A stretch of 64,000 bases of DNA, taken from sequence record NC_070985.1; one strand, 5' to 3'. Below the pieces are notes generated by a model. It worked only from the letters and a program-made list of their open reading frames with translations. It was not told the DNA's origin and did no database searches. Both the position numbers and the translations under genes were made by a program. The stretch comes from Escherichia phage O18-011. Positions 2,419 through 35,808 of the stretch are shown in pieces (the first letter of the stretch is position 1; every line of letters starts with the position of its first letter).

Positions 2419-4221
2419 ATGAGCAACCCGGACGCTCTCCCATTTTTGACAGAGATGACTGTCGCTGATATAATCTCTAAGCAAGCAAAGCACGGAGTGA
2501 GTTTCAACCGAAGAAATGCTCGGTGGTATGTTCACCTCCTTAAAGAGATTATTGTTAATATTGACAAAGAACTGATTCCTCTCTTACCTAAGATGAGATT
2601 AGATGGCTCTACTTATATGAAGCCATTTAAGAAGTCTGGAGCTTTACAGAAGTGGCCTCAAACATATTGTGATAGGGTTGGACTTAAGAGAGAAGACATT
2701 GGTGGAGCATTCACCTGTGTAGAGTACGTAGACTTTGACCCATCGAAAGATGCCCGAGTTAAAGAAGCCCTTATGGATGAGGGTTTTCTTCCTCCAGAGT
2801 TTAACATATCAAAGAAACCTTGGAATACTTTTGAAATCAAGAAAGATATGCGAAAGTACGGAACATACCAAGCATGGTATTCAGCTTGGATGCGAGGTAA
2901 TGCTAAACAGAAGCAGACAGCCGAGATGGTTGACGCTGATATTAGAAAGTTCTTAGAGAAGCATTTTCGGTTTAAAACTAAGAACTACATGAAGGCTTAT
3001 GTATTTGGTTTAGGTTTAAATCCTAACCGACGTAGACCTATCACTTTTGATGAGATTAAGATAGCACTAGCTACCTCAAACAAGTGGCCTACAGCTCCTA
3101 CAAACCTCGAGGAGACTCTTGAAGAAGGGTTAGGGGGTGAGCTAGGGAGTGTCGGAAGTTTGCTTAAGAGACGCGTTGTAGCGGCTCACAGGCTAGGTCT
3201 TATCAGTGGACTCATAGCAAAGGAACGCGAAGATGGTAAACTTTCGGCAGAAGCTAACAGCTGCGCTACGCCGACTTTTCGATTCAAACATCGTATCGTG
3301 GTTAATATTCCCTCCCGTGGTTTGTTTGGTCATGAGTGTCGCAGTTTGTTTGAATCTGACTATAACTCAGATAGTGATCACTCTCGTCCTTTCATTATTA
3401 CTAACGTTGTTCCTGATGGTTGTTATATACGAAAAGGTACTAACGTAATTTACGAGAAAGGTAAGCCGGGGAAGAAAGACAAACCTGTAGGTGCTTACAA
3501 ATATTACATACCCGCTGGTAAAGAGGTATTCTTAGGGTATGATGGTTCTGGATTAGAATTGCGTATGCTCGCACACTACCTCATTAAAGAGTGTAGGGAT
3601 ATGCTTGCTGAAGCAATTGAAGAGAACAATCCAGCTAAGAAAGCTCTGGCAGAACGTGGTTTAGCTTCTGCTATTATGTATCGTGATATTCTCCTTGAAG
3701 GTGATATCCACTCCCACAACCAGAAACTTGCTGGTCTTCCTACTCGTGACAACGCTAAGACGTTAAACAACATGCGAGCACGTTTCTTGGCAGAGAACCC
3801 ATGTATTGCAATCCTCATTGATCGTATGACAGAGAAAGCTGCTCAAGGATACTTGATTGGTGTTGATGGTCGTAAGATTACAATGAGACGAGATTCCACT
3901 GGTAAGGTTATGGTTCATAAAGCACTTAACACTCTCCTGCAATGTGCTGGTGCTGTTGTTATGAAATATGCTATGATGTTCCTTAACAAGTGGATTGAGA
4001 AGGATGGGGTTCGTTGTGCTAAGGTAATTGATATGCATAAACTTCATTGTGCATGTAAAAGTTGGATGGATGAGGGCCAGTTCTCAGTTAATCGTAACGA
4101 TGTACAGAAACTCAAAGAGCACACCGAGCTTTGTGTTAAGAAGGCTGGTGAGTATTTGAACATGGAATGTCCTCTGGCATCTGATTGTCAGATTGGACTT
4201 AACTGGATGCATACACACTAA
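2419..4221 (+). CDS. family-A (T7 gp5-like) DNA polymerase, polymerase domain only
   Basis: Strong SD AAAGGAG; motif A GYDGSGLELRMLAHY; PTRDNAKT and GVDGRK...ALNTLLQCAGA and C-terminal NWMHTH align to T7 DNA polymerase as I recall it; no 3'-5' exonuclease motifs seen. Confidence 0.75.
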   Translation: MSNPDALPFLTEMTVADIISKQAKHGVSFNRRNARWYVHLLKEIIVNIDKELIPLLPKMRLDGSTYMKPFKKSGALQKWPQTYCDRVGLKREDIGGAFTCVEYVDFDPSKDARVKEALMDEGFLPPEFNISKKPWNTFEIKKDMRKYGTYQAWYSAWMRGNAKQKQTAEMVDADIRKFLEKHFRFKTKNYMKAYVFGLGLNPNRRRPITFDEIKIALATSNKWPTAPTNLEETLEEGLGGELGSVGSLLKRRVVAAHRLGLISGLIAKEREDGKLSAEANSCATPTFRFKHRIVVNIPSRGLFGHECRSLFESDYNSDSDHSRPFIITNVVPDGCYIRKGTNVIYEKGKPGKKDKPVGAYKYYIPAGKEVFLGYDGSGLELRMLAHYLIKECRDMLAEAIEENNPAKKALAERGLASAIMYRDILLEGDIHSHNQKLAGLPTRDNAKTLNNMRARFLAENPCIAILIDRMTEKAAQGYLIGVDGRKITMRRDSTGKVMVHKALNTLLQCAGAVVMKYAMMFLNKWIEKDGVRCAKVIDMHKLHCACKSWMDEGQFSVNRNDVQKLKEHTELCVKKAGEYLNMECPLASDCQIGLNWMHTH

Positions 4222-4226
4222 GGTGA

Positions 4227-4595
4227 GTGATGAAAGAAACCAATATCATCTACAGAACATTGAGATGTTTAGCTAAAGAGAGGGGGATGGAGGATTTCCT
4301 CCTCCAATATTATGAAATAGCTAAGACTGGAATTTATCCAAAATGGTTTAGTGAAGATCACGGATTATGCTTCAACTTCCGCTGTTATAAGAGATATCAC
4401 TATTTCACAAAGCATTTAGATATTGACGACATGAAGAATATGTTTAATCGAGAAGAATTCTTGAACCCAGCATATCCCTTCGGATGTGATCAATATTTTA
4501 GAGATAGAGACAACGGGGCACATCATAAGAATCCAAAACGACGGGCTTGGATTAAAAATACACTGAAAACTCTATATAGTATTGAGGTTGAGTGA
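4227..4595 (+). CDS. hypothetical protein
   Basis: ORF track; SD AGGTGA upstream; start may be ATG at 4230. Confidence 0.45.
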   Translation: MMKETNIIYRTLRCLAKERGMEDFLLQYYEIAKTGIYPKWFSEDHGLCFNFRCYKRYHYFTKHLDIDDMKNMFNREEFLNPAYPFGCDQYFRDRDNGAHHKNPKRRAWIKNTLKTLYSIEVE

Positions 4596-4786
4596 TGGGT
4601 ATTAAAGGCTATTATGAATCTTGGGCCGTCTTCAGCGGTGGCTCCACTCTCGTAGCATTAAATGGTCAACTGTGTATCTTTGAGACAGAGAACTTAGCAA
4701 TAACCAAAGCAGCAGAGTTAGTTCGAAAGTTTCCAAACAAGACATTCACAGTTAAAAGGATAGAAGTACCTGCATTGGTAGAGTGA
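4595..4786 (+). CDS. hypothetical small protein
   Basis: ATG at 4595 overlapping upstream TGA (ATGA-type coupling). Confidence 0.4.
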   Translation: MGIKGYYESWAVFSGGSTLVALNGQLCIFETENLAITKAAELVRKFPNKTFTVKRIEVPALVE

Positions 4787-4841
4787 ATAAATAAGACGAA
4801 TGAACTATTCTTATTGATTGGTTCGTAACAAGGAGATTGAA

Positions 4842-4970
4842 GTGGAAGAGATGCCATCGGATTGGTGTTATCGTCAGAGCGCCATCTGTAACGAACAAGG
4901 ACGTCCTGATGAAGCTGAGTTTTATTTAGAACTTGCTGAACTGTGGAAAGAGCGAGAGGAGAAAGAATGA
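4842..4970 (+). CDS. hypothetical small protein (about 40 aa)
   Basis: SD AAGGAG at 4830-4835, GTG 4842 or ATG 4851 start; stop overlaps next start. Confidence 0.3.
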   Translation: MEEMPSDWCYRQSAICNEQGRPDEAEFYLELAELWKEREEKE

Positions 4971-5137
4971 TGGAAGGTATCTACCGTAAGCCGCCTCCGA
5001 AATACAACATCCTTTATACTGATGCAACTGGTGAGTTTAGAAGTGTGTTAGTTTACACGGATGAAGAACGAAACCAAATGGTTGCTGCTATTGAAGCCAA
5101 TGGCGGTACAATCATGCGAATTTATAACATAACATAA
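4967..5137 (+). CDS. hypothetical small protein
   Basis: ATG 4967 after GAGGAG; in frame with track ORF 4943-5137. Confidence 0.35.
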   Translation: MMEGIYRKPPPKYNILYTDATGEFRSVLVYTDEERNQMVAAIEANGGTIMRIYNIT

Positions 5138-10849: not shown

Positions 10850-12391
10850 TTAGTAGCTCTGATTCCATCTGCTTACGTTTGCCTCATATAAAGAAGCACT
10901 TCCGTAGCTAACATCATGCTTAGAGCGACCACGATGTGTAACAGAGCACGCTGAATAGCGCATTGCATCCATTAAGTCATCATGTTCTTTAATAATCTTA
11001 CCAACCTTACGGTGATATCTAGCTTTCTCTTCGAATAGCTTAGCGTTAGCGGCTGTGTTAAAGACTTTAAAGCGTCCACTCATCATTCTTTCTCGGATAT
11101 CTGTGATTCCCGGTTCTACAAAGAAGTTCTTTTTACCATCCATTCCAATTTTGTTGTAGAAGGTCTCACTCTGTACGTTAACTCCTGCATTCTTATAGAA
11201 TTGAGCAACAGATGAACCACTACCTTTCTCAGTATTGTCCGCATCATGCGGTAGGATGACAGGAATCCACTGACCACGACCATTAATAGCTGGAGCATGA
11301 TACACTGGAGTAAAGCCACCTTCTTTATATGAGTCGTAAACATAGATAGTATCCGTGTTTGCATCGTAAGCTGTCCAAACAGCAGCAGTTGGGTGATCGA
11401 TACCAATATCAATTGCACAGACACGTTTCCACGTATCAGGAATTTCGAATGGTTCACATTTAATTGTGTCATCCGATACATCATAAATCAAACCACTTCC
11501 TAACAATGGCATACCTTTTGAACGCATCTCTAACTGCCACGCTGGAATACCTTCAGTCATATCTTTTATATCTTGGTCAGTGATGTGTCCACCTAGGTCT
11601 GCATGAGCATCCCACCAAGAAGCATTCTGGAAATATAGAGAACCTGTGCTCTCATCCCCTTCACCTTTCATAAATTTATCTACCAGTTCAGTTAAACCGT
11701 TCTCTGGTGTAGCTGTAATTGTAACTAGACCTTTAGTTGTGAGTGTACGTGTGACGCACTGTGCGAATATAGCCATAGACTCGTATGGATCTTCTTCGTC
11801 TAACCAAATGTAGTCAACTGTTGCACCCATCAATGTGTGTTCACCCTGTTGGGTTGAACGGAATTCTAATGTACTTAAACCGTCAAACTCTCCTCTTTCA
11901 TTTTGATGTTTGATTTGTACGATTTGAAGTTTGTTACCATCTCGTTCTATCGTATCAATGACGATAGCATCACGAGGAATGACACCTGTCCCTAATAAAT
12001 TTGTATCCTTTCCGATAGGTGTACCAAACAATTCCTTTTGCAATACTTTCCTTGTGGAATCCCCTGTAATACCAACTGCCCATGCTAAGATAGGTCTTTT
12101 AAATTTGTATCCTGTCCACCAAGTTGGGTAGCGACCTGTGACATGACAAGCAAACTCGTATGCCTCGCTATAAGATTTACCAACACGGTTCGCTGCACAC
12201 AAGAATCTAAAGCGATGCTTCAATCCTGCTGCATAAAATTTCTTTTGGAAGTCATACGCCTTGAAAGACAAAATCTTATTATACTTCCTCCATTGGTCAC
12301 GCTCTTTCAACATATTCAACAGTGCTTTCTTTTCCTCTACACTAAGATTGTTACCAGTTAGAGCTTCATAAATTTGTTTATCTAATGACAT
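10850..12391 (-). CDS. terminase large subunit
   Basis: 513 aa; Walker A-like AANRVGKS, Walker B-like YIWLDEED, C-terminal nuclease-like region; end of virion gene block. Confidence 0.75.
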   Translation of the reverse strand: MSLDKQIYEALTGNNLSVEEKKALLNMLKERDQWRKYNKILSFKAYDFQKKFYAAGLKHRFRFLCAANRVGKSYSEAYEFACHVTGRYPTWWTGYKFKRPILAWAVGITGDSTRKVLQKELFGTPIGKDTNLLGTGVIPRDAIVIDTIERDGNKLQIVQIKHQNERGEFDGLSTLEFRSTQQGEHTLMGATVDYIWLDEEDPYESMAIFAQCVTRTLTTKGLVTITATPENGLTELVDKFMKGEGDESTGSLYFQNASWWDAHADLGGHITDQDIKDMTEGIPAWQLEMRSKGMPLLGSGLIYDVSDDTIKCEPFEIPDTWKRVCAIDIGIDHPTAAVWTAYDANTDTIYVYDSYKEGGFTPVYHAPAINGRGQWIPVILPHDADNTEKGSGSSVAQFYKNAGVNVQSETFYNKIGMDGKKNFFVEPGITDIRERMMSGRFKVFNTAANAKLFEEKARYHRKVGKIIKEHDDLMDAMRYSACSVTHRGRSKHDVSYGSASLYEANVSRWNQSY

Positions 12392-12630: not shown

Positions 12631-15600
12631 TCACTCCTTAGGTCGAACTCTTACACGGAGTCTCGATTGACGCTTACTGCGTTCAAGCTTCTCTGACAAT
12701 GAGCCACGTTTAATCTTCGGCTTCCCTTCGTCATTAAACTTCTCCAAGAACTGCAAGTACTCAGTACGATTCGTTGTCTTGTAAGAAGGAATCTTAATAT
12801 CAGGGTTCTCTTCAATTACACGTCTCATCTTCGCTACATCATCCCTACCAAGCAACTTACTCTTAGCTTGTTCAGCTGTAGAACCAAAGATCTTCTCCAG
12901 TGCTCTGGATTTGTTACCACCTGCGGAAGAAGCACCAAGTTTAGCAATAGCAGAATAATCATCAGCACTAAACCAAGCTACCGGATTATCACCATACTTC
13001 TTCTTGTTTTCAGCAGCAGTCTGCAATGCACGTACAAAGCGACGGTTGTTACCAGCCTTATCTGCACCATGAACCCTGTCTAAAACTTCAGCCACACTAG
13101 CCAACTCATCCAAGCTCTTCCCATTCAAGAAAGCTTTCTCTGCTTTATCAGCAAAGGCTTCTTCCTGCTGTTTAATGCTTTCCAAGATATCAGAATTTGC
13201 TTGAGATTTTTCATCGTCAGGCAGAGCAGAACGAATCTTCTCCATCTCCATCTCTTCCTCTTGCAGTTTCTTAATATCAGAGTCAACCTTCTGAGCCTCT
13301 TCAACAGCCTTCCTAGTATCCGCATCCAAGTTATCAAGCTTACCTTCAGTATCTCCAGTAATCTTAACAATCTCTTTCTCGATAGGAGTCATTGATTCAT
13401 ACTTCTTAGCAAACTTCTCAACATCAGCCTCGATACGAGAGCGAGCATTCTGATGTTCAGTTGGAGTCATAGGCTTATCAAGAAGTGCATAACGGTTATC
13501 CATGTAGGAACCAGCAAATGCTTCAGCATCCTCTTTAGATATGCCTTTATCTTCCAAAGTATGCATCAGGCGACGATGAATGTCATCACGTTGACGTTGT
13601 ACTGCCATAAGATCATTCTCACGCTTCTGAGCCGCTTTAAGCTCTTCACTGCGCTTAACTCTTTTGTCTATATCAAACTTACGGTCCATCTCTTCCGCTT
13701 GCTCATACATCTTATTCCACTTAGCCTGACGAGCATCTTCCTCTGCATCAGTTAAACGACGCTGACGGTCAAGGTAATCTGACTCGGCGTTATGGATACG
13801 TTCAATGTAACTACGGAACTTCTCTGGAGGTACTGGAGAGTTCTTGTCGTGGTGAGCAGCCAACTGTTTCAATGTACGAGATTCCTGAGCCTCACGAACA
13901 GGTTTAGGTAAACCTTCCATCATCTTCTCAATCTCACTCTTCTGAGCTGCAATAGCCTCTAGAGTTTTACGTTCATTTTCAACAGCAGCTTTAGCATCTG
14001 AACGAGCCTGTGCCTTATTTCTCAGAGTAGCAAGACGTTCTTCACGAGCCTGCAAGTGTTTAGCAGCAGCTTCGTATTGAGAGTTCTTGTTAGCTTTGTT
14101 GAAGGCATTCACTTCTCTGTTATAGGTGTTAATGAACCCATCCCAAATATCCTTCATCTGACCAACTTCCAAAGCCTCTTCCCTACCAGCTTTCTCTGAA
14201 GATTTAAACTTCCCATCTACAAAGTCATTCATCAGCCTACGCATAGCATCTTTCTGAGCAGGACGTAAAGGTTCAGAATCAATCAAGGTGTCAATCTCAG
14301 ACTGAAGTTCTTTCTTCTGGTCAACCAGTTTAGGAGCATCCTTCTTATCGAAAGCTTTGTTTTCTTCCAGAGCTTCTTGATATAACCTATCAAACTCAGC
14401 CTCGCGTTGCTTCTGATATAACCTTTCAGCACGACGTTTCAGACTATCCAAGTTAGTAACGTTCCCACCTAAACCCTTCTCTTCAGAACGTAATGCCTTA
14501 GTAGCAATGTCTTCTGGCAGACCGCGTTCCTTAACCCATTCAGCAAAGTTAGTTCGTACAGTGTTGTTCTTAGCAGTAGCAATACCTTGCTGAGAAGCTA
14601 ACTGATTACGAGCCATCTCTTCATGACGTTCAGTGTTGATAGCATTATCTTCCTGACGAATACGACGCATCAATTCCTTAGGATCACCCTTGTAAGCCAA
14701 GAAGTTTTCAGCAGTAGCTTTAGCCTTAGCAGCCTTAGAGTACAGAGAGCGAGCAAAACGTTCTGCACGATCTTTAGTAGCCTGACGAGCAGCACTAGAC
14801 ATAGCAGCTAAACGTTCTACACCACTTGCCGGTTTAACGTCCTGTACAGCTTCCTTAGGAGCTTTAGGAGCACGGGCAGGTAATGGCTCAGCTTTGACTG
14901 TTGGTTCCTCTACGGTTGGTTCTGGAGCCTGTGCGGCCTCTTCTTGAGCACGTTGCTGTTCCATTGCACGACGTTCCTCTAAAGGATTACGAGCAGGGAG
15001 TGGTTCAGCCTGTGGAGCCTGTTCAACCGGAGCTTCTTGAGCTGCCAACGCCTCTTCTTCAGCACGACGCTGTTCAGCCTGACGGATAGCACGTCTTTGC
15101 GCAACCAAATCACGAGCTGTAAGAGGAGATTCTTGAGGAGCAGAAGAAGGAAGATTTTCTTCCGTCACAGTACTAGAAGAAGGCTCCCGAACCGGTTCGG
15201 TTTCCACGTCATTTTGCGTCTTAAATTTAATGTCATCAACAACTGGTTCTTCTTCCATCTTAGCACGAGCTTCATCAGCAGTAGACTTAGCACGAGCAAC
15301 TTCCAAATCACCACGAGCGAGAGATCGGATAGCTTCACTGTTGGCTTCTTGTTGCTTAACACGTTGAGAGCGAGCACGCTGGGAGGAGAAGCGATTTATA
15401 GCATACTTAGCAGCACCAAGTGTATTCATAACCAGACTAGGAGAAGAAGCCTCACGGAAGCCATCATCAGTCAGGGAAGTCCAACCACGATCTTGGTTGC
15501 TCATGAACTTAGCTGTGTTGTTCAGAGTGTAAGCGTCTTGGATAGGATTAAAACCTTCAGGCATACCTTTCAGTTTCTTCAACCCACCAATAGCTTTCTT

Positions 15601-17052
15601 CATCTCTGGAGAAACATTATCAGCCATCTTCTGTAACTCAGCAGCTTTCTCTACAAAGTTATTAAAGTCTTCACCATCACGAGCTTTGAATCTATTTGCC
15701 TCGTTGTAGAAAGTCTTATAAGCATCAATGAAATCACGATCAGCTTGTGTGCGATTCTTAACGTCAAGTGGACTACCGGTGAAGTGTCCAGATGCTCTAA
15801 GAGAAGTTAATTCACGGTCTAGGTTATCTAGAACATCTGTAAGAGCTTTCGTGTTATCCTTGGTGTAGTCAGCCATTGCATCTTTCATAGCAACAGCTTG
15901 CTTCTGGTTGTGCTCGTTATCAGCGAAAGCTTTGCCGCGAACTTTAGCAGGAGAAGCCAAAGGATTGAGGCCCGGAATGTTAGAATGCTCTTTCTGAGCA
16001 GAAGCAGCTTTCTCAGCACGAGCTTGGTCTGTATTAAGAATACGCTGAGCAGCAGGAGAATCTACAGCAACAGCATCAGTAATACGGAATCCATTCTCAT
16101 CCAGAAGATTAAGAGCGGAAGCAGCGTTAGCAGTTTCAGCTTTAGAATAGGCTTCTTTCAGTTCATCAATATTCTTAGCACTACGAATCAGTTCATCGTC
16201 AGCAGCAATGTCAGTCTTTGCATACTCTGGAGTATTCTTGAAGACAGCAGAATCTGGACGGCTAATCAAACCATGAACACCACCAACTGCACCACCGAAT
16301 GCAGCACCCATAGCACCTTCTTCGATAACACCTTCTAATGTCTTAGCTAGATTATTATCATCACCATATTTGTTCTGAGCTTCAGCAGCACCTACAAGAG
16401 CACCACCTTTAGCACCAGCCACTGCGTTACTAGCAACGTTCTGACCGATACGACCAAGTGTGGATTCAGCTGTACCAACAGCACCCGGAAGGATTCTCTG
16501 AGCTGCATAGTTAGCACCACCAACTAAAGCTGCATCCAGAACAGACTTATCTTCCCCCTCTTCAGGGGTTTGGTCTGCGTATGCACGACCTGTCTCACGA
16601 CCAGCAATAATAGCAGCGGCAGCCAACGGGTTAGCAACGGTCATGCCAATATCACCAACAACGCCAGCATATTGACCAGCAGTTTTACCAATCCCATCCT
16701 CAATCTTATCCATACGTTCTTTCAGAAGGTTCTGAGAGTTCTCTTGGATACGCTTACCATAACTAGTTTGTGATCCAGCTAGATTCTCACCAATCTCAAC
16801 TAAACCACCAATACCTTTAGCAGCACTAGCTGCAATATTTGCACCACCAGATTGAAGAGCATTTGACACACCTTGAGCAAACTCACCTATAACACCACGT
16901 TCTTCTTGTTGTGGTTGTGCTACTGGCTGTTCCTCAGGAATAGAGCCACCTGCTGCCTTATATTGTTCTCTCATTTGAGCTTGTTGCTCCGGAGAGGCAT
17001 TCAGATACGCAGGAGCTTTGGAAGCTTCTTCCCACGGTTTAATGTTAGCCAT
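12631..17052 (-). CDS. large virion protein (coiled-coil, Ala/Glu/Lys/Gln-rich; possible internal/ejection protein)
   Basis: Start moved to ATG 17052 with SD AAGGAG 6 nt upstream (track start 17097); composition and size typical of podophage internal virion proteins; no polymerase motifs seen. Confidence 0.5.
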   Translation of the reverse strand: MANIKPWEEASKAPAYLNASPEQQAQMREQYKAAGGSIPEEQPVAQPQQEERGVIGEFAQGVSNALQSGGANIAASAAKGIGGLVEIGENLAGSQTSYGKRIQENSQNLLKERMDKIEDGIGKTAGQYAGVVGDIGMTVANPLAAAAIIAGRETGRAYADQTPEEGEDKSVLDAALVGGANYAAQRILPGAVGTAESTLGRIGQNVASNAVAGAKGGALVGAAEAQNKYGDDNNLAKTLEGVIEEGAMGAAFGGAVGGVHGLISRPDSAVFKNTPEYAKTDIAADDELIRSAKNIDELKEAYSKAETANAASALNLLDENGFRITDAVAVDSPAAQRILNTDQARAEKAASAQKEHSNIPGLNPLASPAKVRGKAFADNEHNQKQAVAMKDAMADYTKDNTKALTDVLDNLDRELTSLRASGHFTGSPLDVKNRTQADRDFIDAYKTFYNEANRFKARDGEDFNNFVEKAAELQKMADNVSPEMKKAIGGLKKLKGMPEGFNPIQDAYTLNNTAKFMSNQDRGWTSLTDDGFREASSPSLVMNTLGAAKYAINRFSSQRARSQRVKQQEANSEAIRSLARGDLEVARAKSTADEARAKMEEEPVVDDIKFKTQNDVETEPVREPSSSTVTEENLPSSAPQESPLTARDLVAQRRAIRQAEQRRAEEEALAAQEAPVEQAPQAEPLPARNPLEERRAMEQQRAQEEAAQAPEPTVEEPTVKAEPLPARAPKAPKEAVQDVKPASGVERLAAMSSAARQATKDRAERFARSLYSKAAKAKATAENFLAYKGDPKELMRRIRQEDNAINTERHEEMARNQLASQQGIATAKNNTVRTNFAEWVKERGLPEDIATKALRSEEKGLGGNVTNLDSLKRRAERLYQKQREAEFDRLYQEALEENKAFDKKDAPKLVDQKKELQSEIDTLIDSEPLRPAQKDAMRRLMNDFVDGKFKSSEKAGREEALEVGQMKDIWDGFINTYNREVNAFNKANKNSQYEAAAKHLQAREERLATLRNKAQARSDAKAAVENERKTLEAIAAQKSEIEKMMEGLPKPVREAQESRTLKQLAAHHDKNSPVPPEKFRSYIERIHNAESDYLDRQRRLTDAEEDARQAKWNKMYEQAEEMDRKFDIDKRVKRSEELKAAQKRENDLMAVQRQRDDIHRRLMHTLEDKGISKEDAEAFAGSYMDNRYALLDKPMTPTEHQNARSRIEADVEKFAKKYESMTPIEKEIVKITGDTEGKLDNLDADTRKAVEEAQKVDSDIKKLQEEEMEMEKIRSALPDDEKSQANSDILESIKQQEEAFADKAEKAFLNGKSLDELASVAEVLDRVHGADKAGNNRRFVRALQTAAENKKKYGDNPVAWFSADDYSAIAKLGASSAGGNKSRALEKIFGSTAEQAKSKLLGRDDVAKMRRVIEENPDIKIPSYKTTNRTEYLQFLEKFNDEGKPKIKRGSLSEKLERSKRQSRLRVRVRPKE

Positions 17053-17119
17053 AACGTCTCCTTTTATAAATAAAAATGTCCTACCCCCTATATACATTAT
17101 AGAAGGCAGGACTTAGGTC

Positions 17120-34083: not shown

Positions 34084-34149
34084 AGGTTGTCCTCCTTGTT
34101 ATATGTAGACAAAGAATATACATTACACACTGGCTTGTATAGGTCTTAA

Positions 34150-34178
34150 AACGAAAAACCCCGCCCGAAGGCAGGGTC
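34150..34178 (-). terminator. rho-independent terminator after capsid genes
   Basis: - strand ACCCTGCC-ttcg-GGCGGGGT followed by TTTTTCGTT. Confidence 0.5.
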
Positions 34179-34184
34179 TAATTT

Positions 34185-34697
34185 TTAAGCAGGTGTTACA
34201 CCAGTAAAAGTGCATGTTGCATTGATAGACGGAGTGGCTGTCAAACTAGCTTGAACAGTAACTTCGCCACTTGCAGCAGCATCTAAGGTTAACGCACCAG
34301 CGGCGCTTACTGTACCAGCTTCTTCAGGAGTTACAACAAACGTGTAATCCGCAGCAGCAGAATTAGTTACAGTAAACATGGTAGTGAAATTAGTGGAAGA
34401 ACCACCAGTTTTACCCGTAATTGGACCTCTAGCTACAATAGTAGGAGTAGGATCAACAATTTCAGAAATGGTTGCTGTACCAGAAACACCTTCCAAAGTT
34501 GCAGTAATGGATACATCAGTGGATTGAGACGCACTCGGAGCAGTGTACAAACCCGACTGAGTGATAGAACCACCTCCTGTCACTGACCAAGTAAAGCCAG
34601 TTGTTTCGGTAGAACCATCACTTTTCTCCGCGCTTGCAGTGAACTGCCGAGTAGCCCCTGTCTCTAGACTTGCTAAAGACGCAGGGCTAACAGTCAT
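34185..34697 (-). CDS. Ig-like (Big_2-type) domain ORF, probably expressed as a -1 frameshift extension of the capsid protein
   Basis: No SD of its own; its frame is open upstream through slippery site G_GGA_AAG (34721-34727) near the end of the capsid gene. Confidence 0.5.
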   Translation of the reverse strand: MTVSPASLASLETGATRQFTASAEKSDGSTETTGFTWSVTGGGSITQSGLYTAPSASQSTDVSITATLEGVSGTATISEIVDPTPTIVARGPITGKTGGSSTNFTTMFTVTNSAAADYTFVVTPEEAGTVSAAGALTLDAAASGEVTVQASLTATPSINATCTFTGVTPA

Positions 34698-34708
34698 ACT
34701 GTCTACTG

Positions 34709-35767
34709 TTACGCCGCCACCTTTCCCGCAGCAGTGAACAGAACGCCGGAAGCATACGGGTTGCGGTGACGCAGACCAACTTCCATTTCAATCATCCATT
34801 TTTCGTAAGAACCATCTTTCGCCAGTTCAGTACGTTTCGGAGCACGCAGAACCATCTGAGTCCAGTCAGCGCTACGGAAGAAGTAAACTGCATCGGTAGG
34901 CATCCAACGGTTAACGATGATTTTGTAGCTCTGGCCCAGCGGGTCAGTGATGCTGTTAACTTCGTAGATGAACTGCTTGGTGTTCTCAAAGATACGCTTA
35001 CGTGAACCCTGAGTATTTTCTTGCAGACCAGCGAAGATCTTAGCATGAGCCGGGTTAATCATGATGATATCTGCTTCAGAACCAGCGGTGTACAGTTGCA
35101 GAGTCATATCAAAGATATCTGCTTCATCAAAGCCGATGTTAGTAGTCGGGTTAGAAGCGTTCTGTGCAACCTTAACAGTTACTGCACCAGTATCCGGGTC
35201 AGCAGGACCATTCTTGGTCTTGTCAACAACAGCACCAGCCAGACCACCGTGAGCACACAGGAACTGGAATGCACCAGTCTTACGAGCTGCATGGGTGTCG
35301 TTCAGACCGACAGTTGCAGGATCAGTTGCAGAGTTAGTCAGGTATTGGTCAGCCAGAACGTCGGTACGAGCCTGACCGGACAGAAGGATTTTCTCGAGGT
35401 CACGCTTGATCTCTTTACCTTTCTTCTCCAGCTGGTACATCAGTTCACGACCACGACCATAGTTAGCGGTGGTGTTAGCGGTATCAGAAACTTTAACAAC
35501 CTTACGCAGAATCTGAGTAACGTTGGATTTGATTACGGTAGGTTGCATTTCACCATCAACCGCACGAGAACCTTCAACGTGTGCGTTATTAGCGTCAACG
35601 CTTGCCAATGCATCGGTCTGCCAGCTAAAGATAGTCTGGTTGATAGACTCTTTACCGGTCATAGATACGAACGGAGTATCCTGAGGGGACAGAACAGAAA
35701 TCCAGTTAGCAAAAGAAAGTTTTTTACCATTCTGGTCATACGATACAAATAAAGTTGGATTAGCCAT
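34709..35767 (-). CDS. major capsid protein
   Basis: 352 aa; downstream of portal and scaffold; slippery site near 3' end; terminator downstream. Confidence 0.65.
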   Translation of the reverse strand: MANPTLFVSYDQNGKKLSFANWISVLSPQDTPFVSMTGKESINQTIFSWQTDALASVDANNAHVEGSRAVDGEMQPTVIKSNVTQILRKVVKVSDTANTTANYGRGRELMYQLEKKGKEIKRDLEKILLSGQARTDVLADQYLTNSATDPATVGLNDTHAARKTGAFQFLCAHGGLAGAVVDKTKNGPADPDTGAVTVKVAQNASNPTTNIGFDEADIFDMTLQLYTAGSEADIIMINPAHAKIFAGLQENTQGSRKRIFENTKQFIYEVNSITDPLGQSYKIIVNRWMPTDAVYFFRSADWTQMVLRAPKRTELAKDGSYEKWMIEMEVGLRHRNPYASGVLFTAAGKVAA

Positions 35768-35808
35768 GTTATGTTAGCTCCTATACTATTAAATAATTAA
35801 TTTGTCGA

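Follow-up and report, generated by a model that had tools for sequence, protein, structure and literature searches.

In Kuravirus-like phages, the joining of the major capsid protein (MCP) to an immunoglobulin (Ig)-like domain by ribosomal frameshifting is already published and is not new. A capsid-Ig frameshift at the heptamer GGGAAAG was described for phage SU10 (Mirzaei 2014, PMC4281155), and the frameshift of phiEco32 is attributed to Savalia 2008 as cited in that paper. For the whole Kuravirus-like group, a slippery heptamer and a -1 isoform of ~500-550 amino acids (aa) with an Ig-like domain were later reported (PMC9965538, 2023). The same signal was found in phage Privateer, where two capsid bands were seen and the minor form was found by mass spectrometry in virions (PMC7881722, 2021). 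In GenBank, the record of phage Paul (MN045231) carries a joined coding sequence with the note 'Frameshift at GGGAAAG; Frameshift in PhiEco32 major capsid protein product as well (PMID: 18294652)'.

We analyzed a stretch of 64,000 nucleotides (nt) of Escherichia phage O18-011 (NC_070985.1), referred to as the window, in which the MCP gene is followed by an open reading frame (ORF) for an Ig-like protein. The phage belongs to Kuravirus; it is a prolate-headed podovirus of E. coli that resembles phiEco32. An earlier reading of the letters without database searches (the sequence-only reading) had proposed that a programmed -1 frameshift fuses the two ORFs. We find that such a frameshift, yielding a minor capsid-Ig fusion, is very probably the best explanation of the locus. 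The proposal is supported by the phase of the slip site, the open -1 frame, the conservation of the heptamer, a start codon that is not conserved and a protein fold that begins upstream of that start. The elements concerned are the following.

34709..35767, minus strand: MCP gene, zero frame, 352 aa, 38.6 kDa (ORF list; HK97 fold, SU10_MCP family)
34721..34727, minus strand: slippery heptamer G_GGA_AAG, -1 tandem-slippage site, read 34727..34721
34709..34711, minus strand: zero-frame TAA stop of the MCP gene, 16 nt after the heptamer start
34185..34721, minus strand: -1 extension, 178 codons plus TAA (34187-34185), made up of the Gly-rich linker GGGVTVDS and then the 170-aa ORF
34185..34697, minus strand: 170-aa ORF as first called (ORF list)

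The minus strand at the end of the MCP gene reads ...ACT GCT GCG GGA AAG GTG GCG GCG TAA CAG TAG ACA GTA TGA CTG..., and GGGAAAG starts at index 1040 of the gene (1040 mod 3 = 2), which gives the zero-frame phase G_GGA_AAG. The sequence-only reading had placed the heptamer in this slip phase, and had described the -1 frame as open into the 170-aa ORF. Both descriptions hold: the -1 frame (GGG AAA GGT GGC GGC GTA ACA GTA GAC AGT ATG ACT...) enters the ORF in frame and reads straight through to 34185. The predicted fusion, join(35767..34721, 34721..34185), comprises 349 + 8 + 170 = 527 aa, and its computed mass of 55.7 kDa, compared to 38.6 kDa for the MCP, matches the ~56 kDa that had been anticipated. 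Its predicted tryptic junction peptide, following ...FTAAGK, is GGGVTVDSMTVSPASLASLETGATR.

A TGA at 34790-34788 shuts the -1 frame upstream, so any shift must fall in 34787..34709, the last 79 nt of the MCP gene. G_GGA_AAG is the sole in-phase X_XXY_YYZ in the whole gene and hence also in these 79 nt. The bare GGGAAAG shows no enrichment, with 8 copies in the window compared to 7.0 expected, and is uninformative alone. We replaced this count by a test of phase and extension that covered in-phase X_XXY_YYZ sites in all window ORFs of at least 100 aa. Among the 25 sites found, the MCP site was the only one whose -1 frame passes the stop of its host gene; its -1 extension is 178 aa long, the next longest 30 and the median 5. 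The heptamer also holds the only GGA among the 24 Gly codons of the MCP gene, 20 of which are GGT, and this lone GGA argues for selection on nucleotides rather than on amino acids. A +1 shift was rejected as a candidate, as in those Kuravirus relatives that were examined the +1 frame shuts no more than 7 codons from the capsid stop.

We compared 18 Kuravirus-like junctions, including the window, phiEco32, NJ01-like phages, Paul, EP335, SU7, EK010, Bas88, 172-1, 4E8 and others. GGGAAAG is present in 18/18, and the -1 frame is intact in 17/18. The -1 peptide encoded from the heptamer up to the ATG of the 170-aa ORF is conserved as a Gly/Ser linker followed by VTVD/ES (GGGVTVDS, GSGGVTVES, GGSVTVDS), and the sole length difference in this interval among relatives is a 3-nt in-frame indel. 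The zero-frame tail 3' of the heptamer varies among the relatives (VAA, AAA, AVAA, AGA, VEA, VVA).

The fusion recurs in more distant members of the SU10_MCP family. In Privateervirus (Proteus phage P59 and Cronobacter phage 009; 57% MCP identity), G_GGA_AAG stands directly before TAA, and the -1 frame encodes a 169-aa I-set-like extension that is unrelated to, and not alignable with, the Big_2-type extension of Kuravirus; the first annotated start comes ~180 nt past the capsid stop. In Lahexavirus-like Aeromonas phages and Serratia phage KSP100, a canonical X_XXY_YYZ was not found at the end of the capsid gene. These phages share G/A_GUA_AAG, from which an open -1 frame leads into an Ig domain. 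KSP100 permits a shift in four codons only, UCA GUA AAG UCG, and this confinement in the sequence points to a non-canonical A_AAG slip. The G/A_GUA_AAG sites lie at about 3905-3925 in Aeromonas phage LAh_9 (L008) and in L016-L019 and at about 3280-3298 in KSP100 (L010), and a GC-rich hairpin is seen 6 nt downstream in L016 and L018, both Lahexavirus-like. A loose literature query found no description of the Lahexavirus-like G/A_GUA_AAG frameshift. The uncultivated relative L021 (IMGVR_UViG_3300033688_000038) has a dnaX-type A_AAA_AAG before the capsid stop, at about 3915-4055; its -1 extension is only ~45 aa long, Lys/Pro/Val-rich and not Ig-like.

Neither Cronobacter phage A24 nor Salmonella phage pSal-SNUABM-01 has a slip site. 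Both contain two tandem MCP paralogues, the second of which continues in frame into a C-terminal extension (total lengths 361 and 597 aa, respectively), and gene duplication appears to replace frameshifting as the means of making two capsid isoforms. The paralogues are located at 2992-3930 and 4011-5096 in A24 (L009) and at 1982-2920 and 3001-4794 in pSal-SNUABM-01 (L007). The SU10_MCP family would thus arrive at two capsid isoforms by four routes: G_GGA_AAG in Kuravirus and Privateervirus, A_AAA_AAG in L021, G/A_GUA_AAG, and duplication with in-frame fusion. That the fusion is reached by several routes, through different slip sites or through an in-frame paralogue, indicates that the covalent MCP fusion is a selected product.

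The extension was also analyzed at the level of protein structure, where two domains were delimited.

34458..34706, minus strand: Ig-like domain 1, extension residues ~6-88 (AlphaFold2; Big_2 E = 1.4e-3); its first strand, residues 6-12, spans ATG 34697-34695
34188..34448, minus strand: Ig-like domain 2, extension residues ~92-178 (AlphaFold2; Foldseek; Big_2 E = 6e-3)

Pfam Big_2 (PF02368) stayed below its gathering cutoff of 22.8 bits; the entire ORF scored 20.1 bits and its two halves 19.0 and 16.9 bits. The extension matches PHROG 13745 'Ig domain containing protein' (E = 1.4e-80), and an AlphaFold2 model of it (19 homologues) shows two beta-sandwich domains at a predicted local distance difference test (pLDDT) of 96.2. 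When the predicted model was compared with the PDB using Foldseek, the top match was to the tandem Big_2 domains of Leptospira LigA (E = 1.2e-10); further matches were a LigB Ig-like domain (TM-score 0.69, normalised by target length), Big_2-CBM56 and the Ig-like nozzle domains of SU10. The Ig-like domain named in the sequence-only reading is therefore borne out as two Big_2-type sandwiches, although the Pfam score is sub-threshold. From the model, a tandem Ig-like fold of Big_2/LigA type that begins upstream of ATG 34697 is confidently predicted.

In the mechanism that we propose, most ribosomes would stop at TAA 34711-34709 and release the 352-aa MCP. A fraction would slip back by one base, the tRNA-Gly and tRNA-Lys on GGA and AAG re-pairing with GGG and AAA. 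These ribosomes would read the -1 frame through the Gly-rich linker and the two tandem Big_2-type domains to TAA 34187-34185, and the resulting 527-aa, 55.7-kDa fusion would co-assemble as a minor subunit of the head. A minority of subunits would then be expected to carry the Ig domain, and by analogy with lambda G-T, which has the same heptamer, slippage might occur at a frequency of a few per cent. With the ~715 capsid subunits per head reported for SU10 (PMC9509320), slippage of 3-10% would correspond to some 20-70 subunits bearing an Ig domain. The Ig domains would presumably be displayed externally and exert their function on the capsid surface. Downstream hairpins may play a role in slippage, and two candidates were found.

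34681..34720, minus strand: hairpin HP1, candidate stimulator immediately 3' of the heptamer, ~-15 kcal/mol (RNA fold)
34642..34695, minus strand: hairpin HP2, 21 bp, irregular, starting ~25 nt 3' of the heptamer (minimum-free-energy fold, z = -2.5)

HP1 begins 0-5 nt 3' of the heptamer, and the TAA of the MCP gene falls in its core stem, UAACAGU/ACUGUUA (34711..34688). In an alignment of 13 sequences 96.7% of its cells are paired, 10/14 pairs are invariant and none is changed on both sides. For HP2, 94.9% of cells are paired and two pairs show compensatory changes (UA/GC/AU and GC/UG); 0/500 shuffles reached its covariation score, a signal to which only ~4 independent lineages contribute and which is confounded by coding constraints. 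HP2 falls within the codons of Ig domain 1, and its compensatory changes are accompanied by amino acid replacements (L/V/M and E/P/Q/L). Because HP2 and the 3' arm of HP1 overlap, the two hairpins are mutually exclusive. A third hairpin, which holds the slip site in its loop (34734..34714), is present in the minimum-free-energy fold, and a hairpin of this kind was proposed for SU10 (PMC4281155). We rejected it as a classical downstream stimulator because the ribosome that decodes the heptamer has already taken in the 5' arm, which precedes the slip site. No motif resembling a Shine-Dalgarno (SD) sequence is visible upstream of the heptamer, and an Rfam scan of the window matched no known frameshift element family but only a tRNA. 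The G-T frameshift of lambda takes place at an identical heptamer and is commonly regarded as independent of a stimulator. We speculate that competition between HP1 and HP2 may act as a switch that tunes the ratio of capsid to capsid-Ig protein, an idea that differs from the slip-site-in-loop proposal for SU10. Such control by an HP1/HP2 switch and the evolutionary plasticity seen in the four routes might, taken jointly, be new beyond the known frameshift, a view that we put forward tentatively and with considerable doubt.

How else might the Ig-like ORF be expressed? It could encode a separate 170-aa polypeptide that is begun at ATG 34697, for example by termination-reinitiation, and that decorates the capsid non-covalently, the heptamer being incidental. 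An ATG is indeed present in the window, and GTG stands at the same position in seven relatives; most GenBank Kuravirus records annotate the MCP and the Ig ORF as two separate genes, and the SU10 structure paper (PMC9509320) took gp10 as a possible low-affinity minor capsid protein. The translation start itself argues against this explanation. The best anti-SD duplex upstream of ATG 34697 reaches -1.7 kcal/mol, whereas the remaining minus-strand ORFs of 150 aa or more have a median of -8.5 kcal/mol; this bears out the earlier claim that the 170-aa ORF lacks its own SD. Among the 17 intact-frame sequences the homologous codon is ATG once (in the window only), GTG in seven and a non-start ATA or GTA in nine, and in these nine the first start of the -1 frame lies 51-144 nt past the heptamer, inside Ig domain 1. 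Because the start codon is not conserved, gene callers pick inconsistent internal Met codons, and the extension ORFs that they report range from 110 to 254 aa. In the predicted model, the Met of ATG 34697 is residue 9 of the extension and lies inside beta-strand A (residues 6-12), so a protein begun there would miss half of this strand. Nor would a separate protein be expected from the conservation of the heptamer and of the -1 peptide upstream of the ATG, or from the relatives without frameshift that encode the fusion in frame. A separately initiated Ig protein thus seems very improbable to us, and a programmed frameshift accounts better for these data.

It is also conceivable that the frameshift cassette is dispensable or decaying in O18-011 and that the fusion is not incorporated or has no role, as is apparently the case in SU10, where the -1 frame is broken, the phage is viable and the capsid lacks extra density (PMC9965538). 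The modular nature of the extension and its very variable length, 178 to 545 aa, would agree with dispensability. Set against this are the intact -1 frame in 17/18 junctions, the window among them, the very high predicted confidence with which the extension folds in the model, and the independent lineages that keep a capsid-Ig product by other slip sites or by gene duplication. We consider decay slightly less probable still than a separate Ig protein. A frame change by transcriptional slippage of RNA polymerase on an A-run is hardly credible. Realignment of this type does yield trans-frame proteins in some bacterial and phage genes, but it usually needs runs of about 7-9 A or T. The only homopolymer here is AAA (or GGG), a run that is too short and for which we reject this explanation, and the motif is the textbook heptamer for tandem slippage in the correct codon phase.

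Several observations nevertheless weigh against the programmed frameshift as proposed here. The ATG in the window lies 11 nt past the capsid stop, so that some termination-reinitiation is possible. With its invariant pairs, HP1 could not be upheld as a stimulator supported by covariation, since the alignment neither supports nor refutes it, and HP2 lies further downstream than typical stimulators (~5-9 nt). For O18-011 itself, the fusion is a prediction from the nucleotide sequence. The evidence for a longer capsid protein in phiEco32 virions comes second-hand, through later papers and the GenBank note on Paul. Cryo-electron microscopy of SU10 showed no extra capsid density (PMC9509320), and the support from mass spectrometry of SU10 is weak. 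In PMC4281155 the '9+10' entry (55.4 kDa) has 22 peptides covering 50.29% of 527 aa (~265 aa), and gene 9 (MCP) alone has 23 peptides covering 78.1% of 352 aa (~275 aa). As the '9+10' entry covers no more residues than the MCP entry, it could consist of MCP peptides only, may hold no Ig peptides and is not independent proof. The missing density has an explanation in the SU10 sequence. The deposited genome (KM044272; L003 about 2600-2610; alignment A2 column 42) carries a 1-nt insertion 30-35 nt past the heptamer, which shuts the -1 frame after 11 codons. This closure fits the missing density, which PMC9965538 likewise attributes to a -1-frame stop.

At the nucleotide level, region 34100-35800 is 96.5% identical to phiEco32, an Escherichia phage, with dozens of further Kuraviruses reaching 95-96%, and a 24-kb stretch around the locus is ~92% identical to phages 172-1, NJ01 and PGN6866. 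On the minus strand the gene order is portal (747 aa), a small ORF, scaffold (358 aa), MCP (352 aa), the 170-aa ORF, adaptor (250 aa, Pfam SU10_adaptor) and tail fibre. The MCP belongs to SU10_MCP by gathering score (Pfam PF17236, E = 5.7e-77, 259.5 bits compared to a cutoff of 24.1) as well as by homology to a solved capsid protein, with ~97% identity to the major head protein of SU10 (PDB 7z45, E = 6e-230). A strong terminator was found directly after the extension.

34146..34179, minus strand: intrinsic terminator directly 3' of the extension, 10-bp stem with 6 G-C pairs, then a T-run

Between the MCP and the Ig region no terminator was found, and in SU10 and Paul a terminator is annotated at the same place, after the extension. 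In the Kuravirus-like group the extensions measure 178-180, 370-372, 503 or 545 aa, and these size classes suggest domain shuffling just 3' of the slip site. The MCP of the window has 100% protein identity to that of Paul, yet its extension is of the phiEco32 type, with two domains and 178 aa, and not the 545-aa extension of Paul, which makes the locus a mosaic around the slip site. Elsewhere in the window, a tRNA-Arg gene with anticodon TCT (51182-51257, plus strand) is oriented oppositely to the structural genes and is the sole Rfam/ARAGORN match. Two big minus-strand ORFs, 10850-12391 (513 aa) and 12631-17097 (1488 aa), have nearly no SD at their first ATG (-0.4 and -0.8 kcal/mol); they may in fact be started at other codons, or translational coupling may be involved.

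With regard to annotation, the 170-aa Ig-like ORF would not be a separate gene but the 3' part of join(35767..34721, 34721..34185), a minor capsid isoform, and most deposited Kuravirus records still misannotate the capsid-Ig locus. The fusion is a likely means by which these prolate phages present Ig-like domains on their heads, possibly for adhesion to glycans or mucin, and the slip site marks a permissive C-terminal position for phage display. None of these implications is new to specialists.

The closest described system is gp11/gp12 of phiEco32 (major head protein and Ig-like domain), which shares genus, heptamer, TAA spacing and linker with the window and has the same two-domain 178-aa extension and 527-aa fusion. 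It differs in having GTG at extension codon 9, where the window has ATG. Annotated Kuravirus equivalents of the gp11/gp12 frameshift are CPT_Paul_009/010 of Paul and gp8 of YF01; despite the identical MCP, Paul differs in its 545-aa extension, compared to 178 aa in the window. Privateervirus (Privateer/P59 and Cronobacter phage 009) resembles the window in its homologous MCP (57%), in GGGAAAG at the 3' end of the gene and in a -1 extension of ~169 aa of Ig type, but its heptamer abuts the stop (G_GGA_AAG_TAA) and its extension is I-set-like.

Lambda G/G-T is a mechanistic analogue with the identical heptamer G_GGA_AAG, as the sequence-only reading had correctly stated, and with the same -1 direction. 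Its products are tail assembly chaperones, G-T is not a component of the virion, and the genes are not homologous to the locus described here. Slippage at lambda G-T is about 3.5% (quoted in PMC9965538). T7 and T3 10A/10B resemble the window in a -1 shift near the 3' end of the major capsid gene that gives a longer minor isoform co-assembling in the head. The gene 10 slip site and extension differ from the Kuravirus ones and the T7 capsid is not of the SU10_MCP family, so that the likeness is one of strategy, mechanism and outcome and not of descent. The 10B frameshift is about 10% (quoted in PMC9965538 and PMC7881722). More broadly, the C-terminal addition of Big_2 or I-set domains by programmed frameshift is part of a pattern of Ig-like domains on phage structural proteins (Fraser et al. 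2006, as cited in PMC9965538). Such domains presumably serve weak adhesion, a role that the Kuravirus domains may share.

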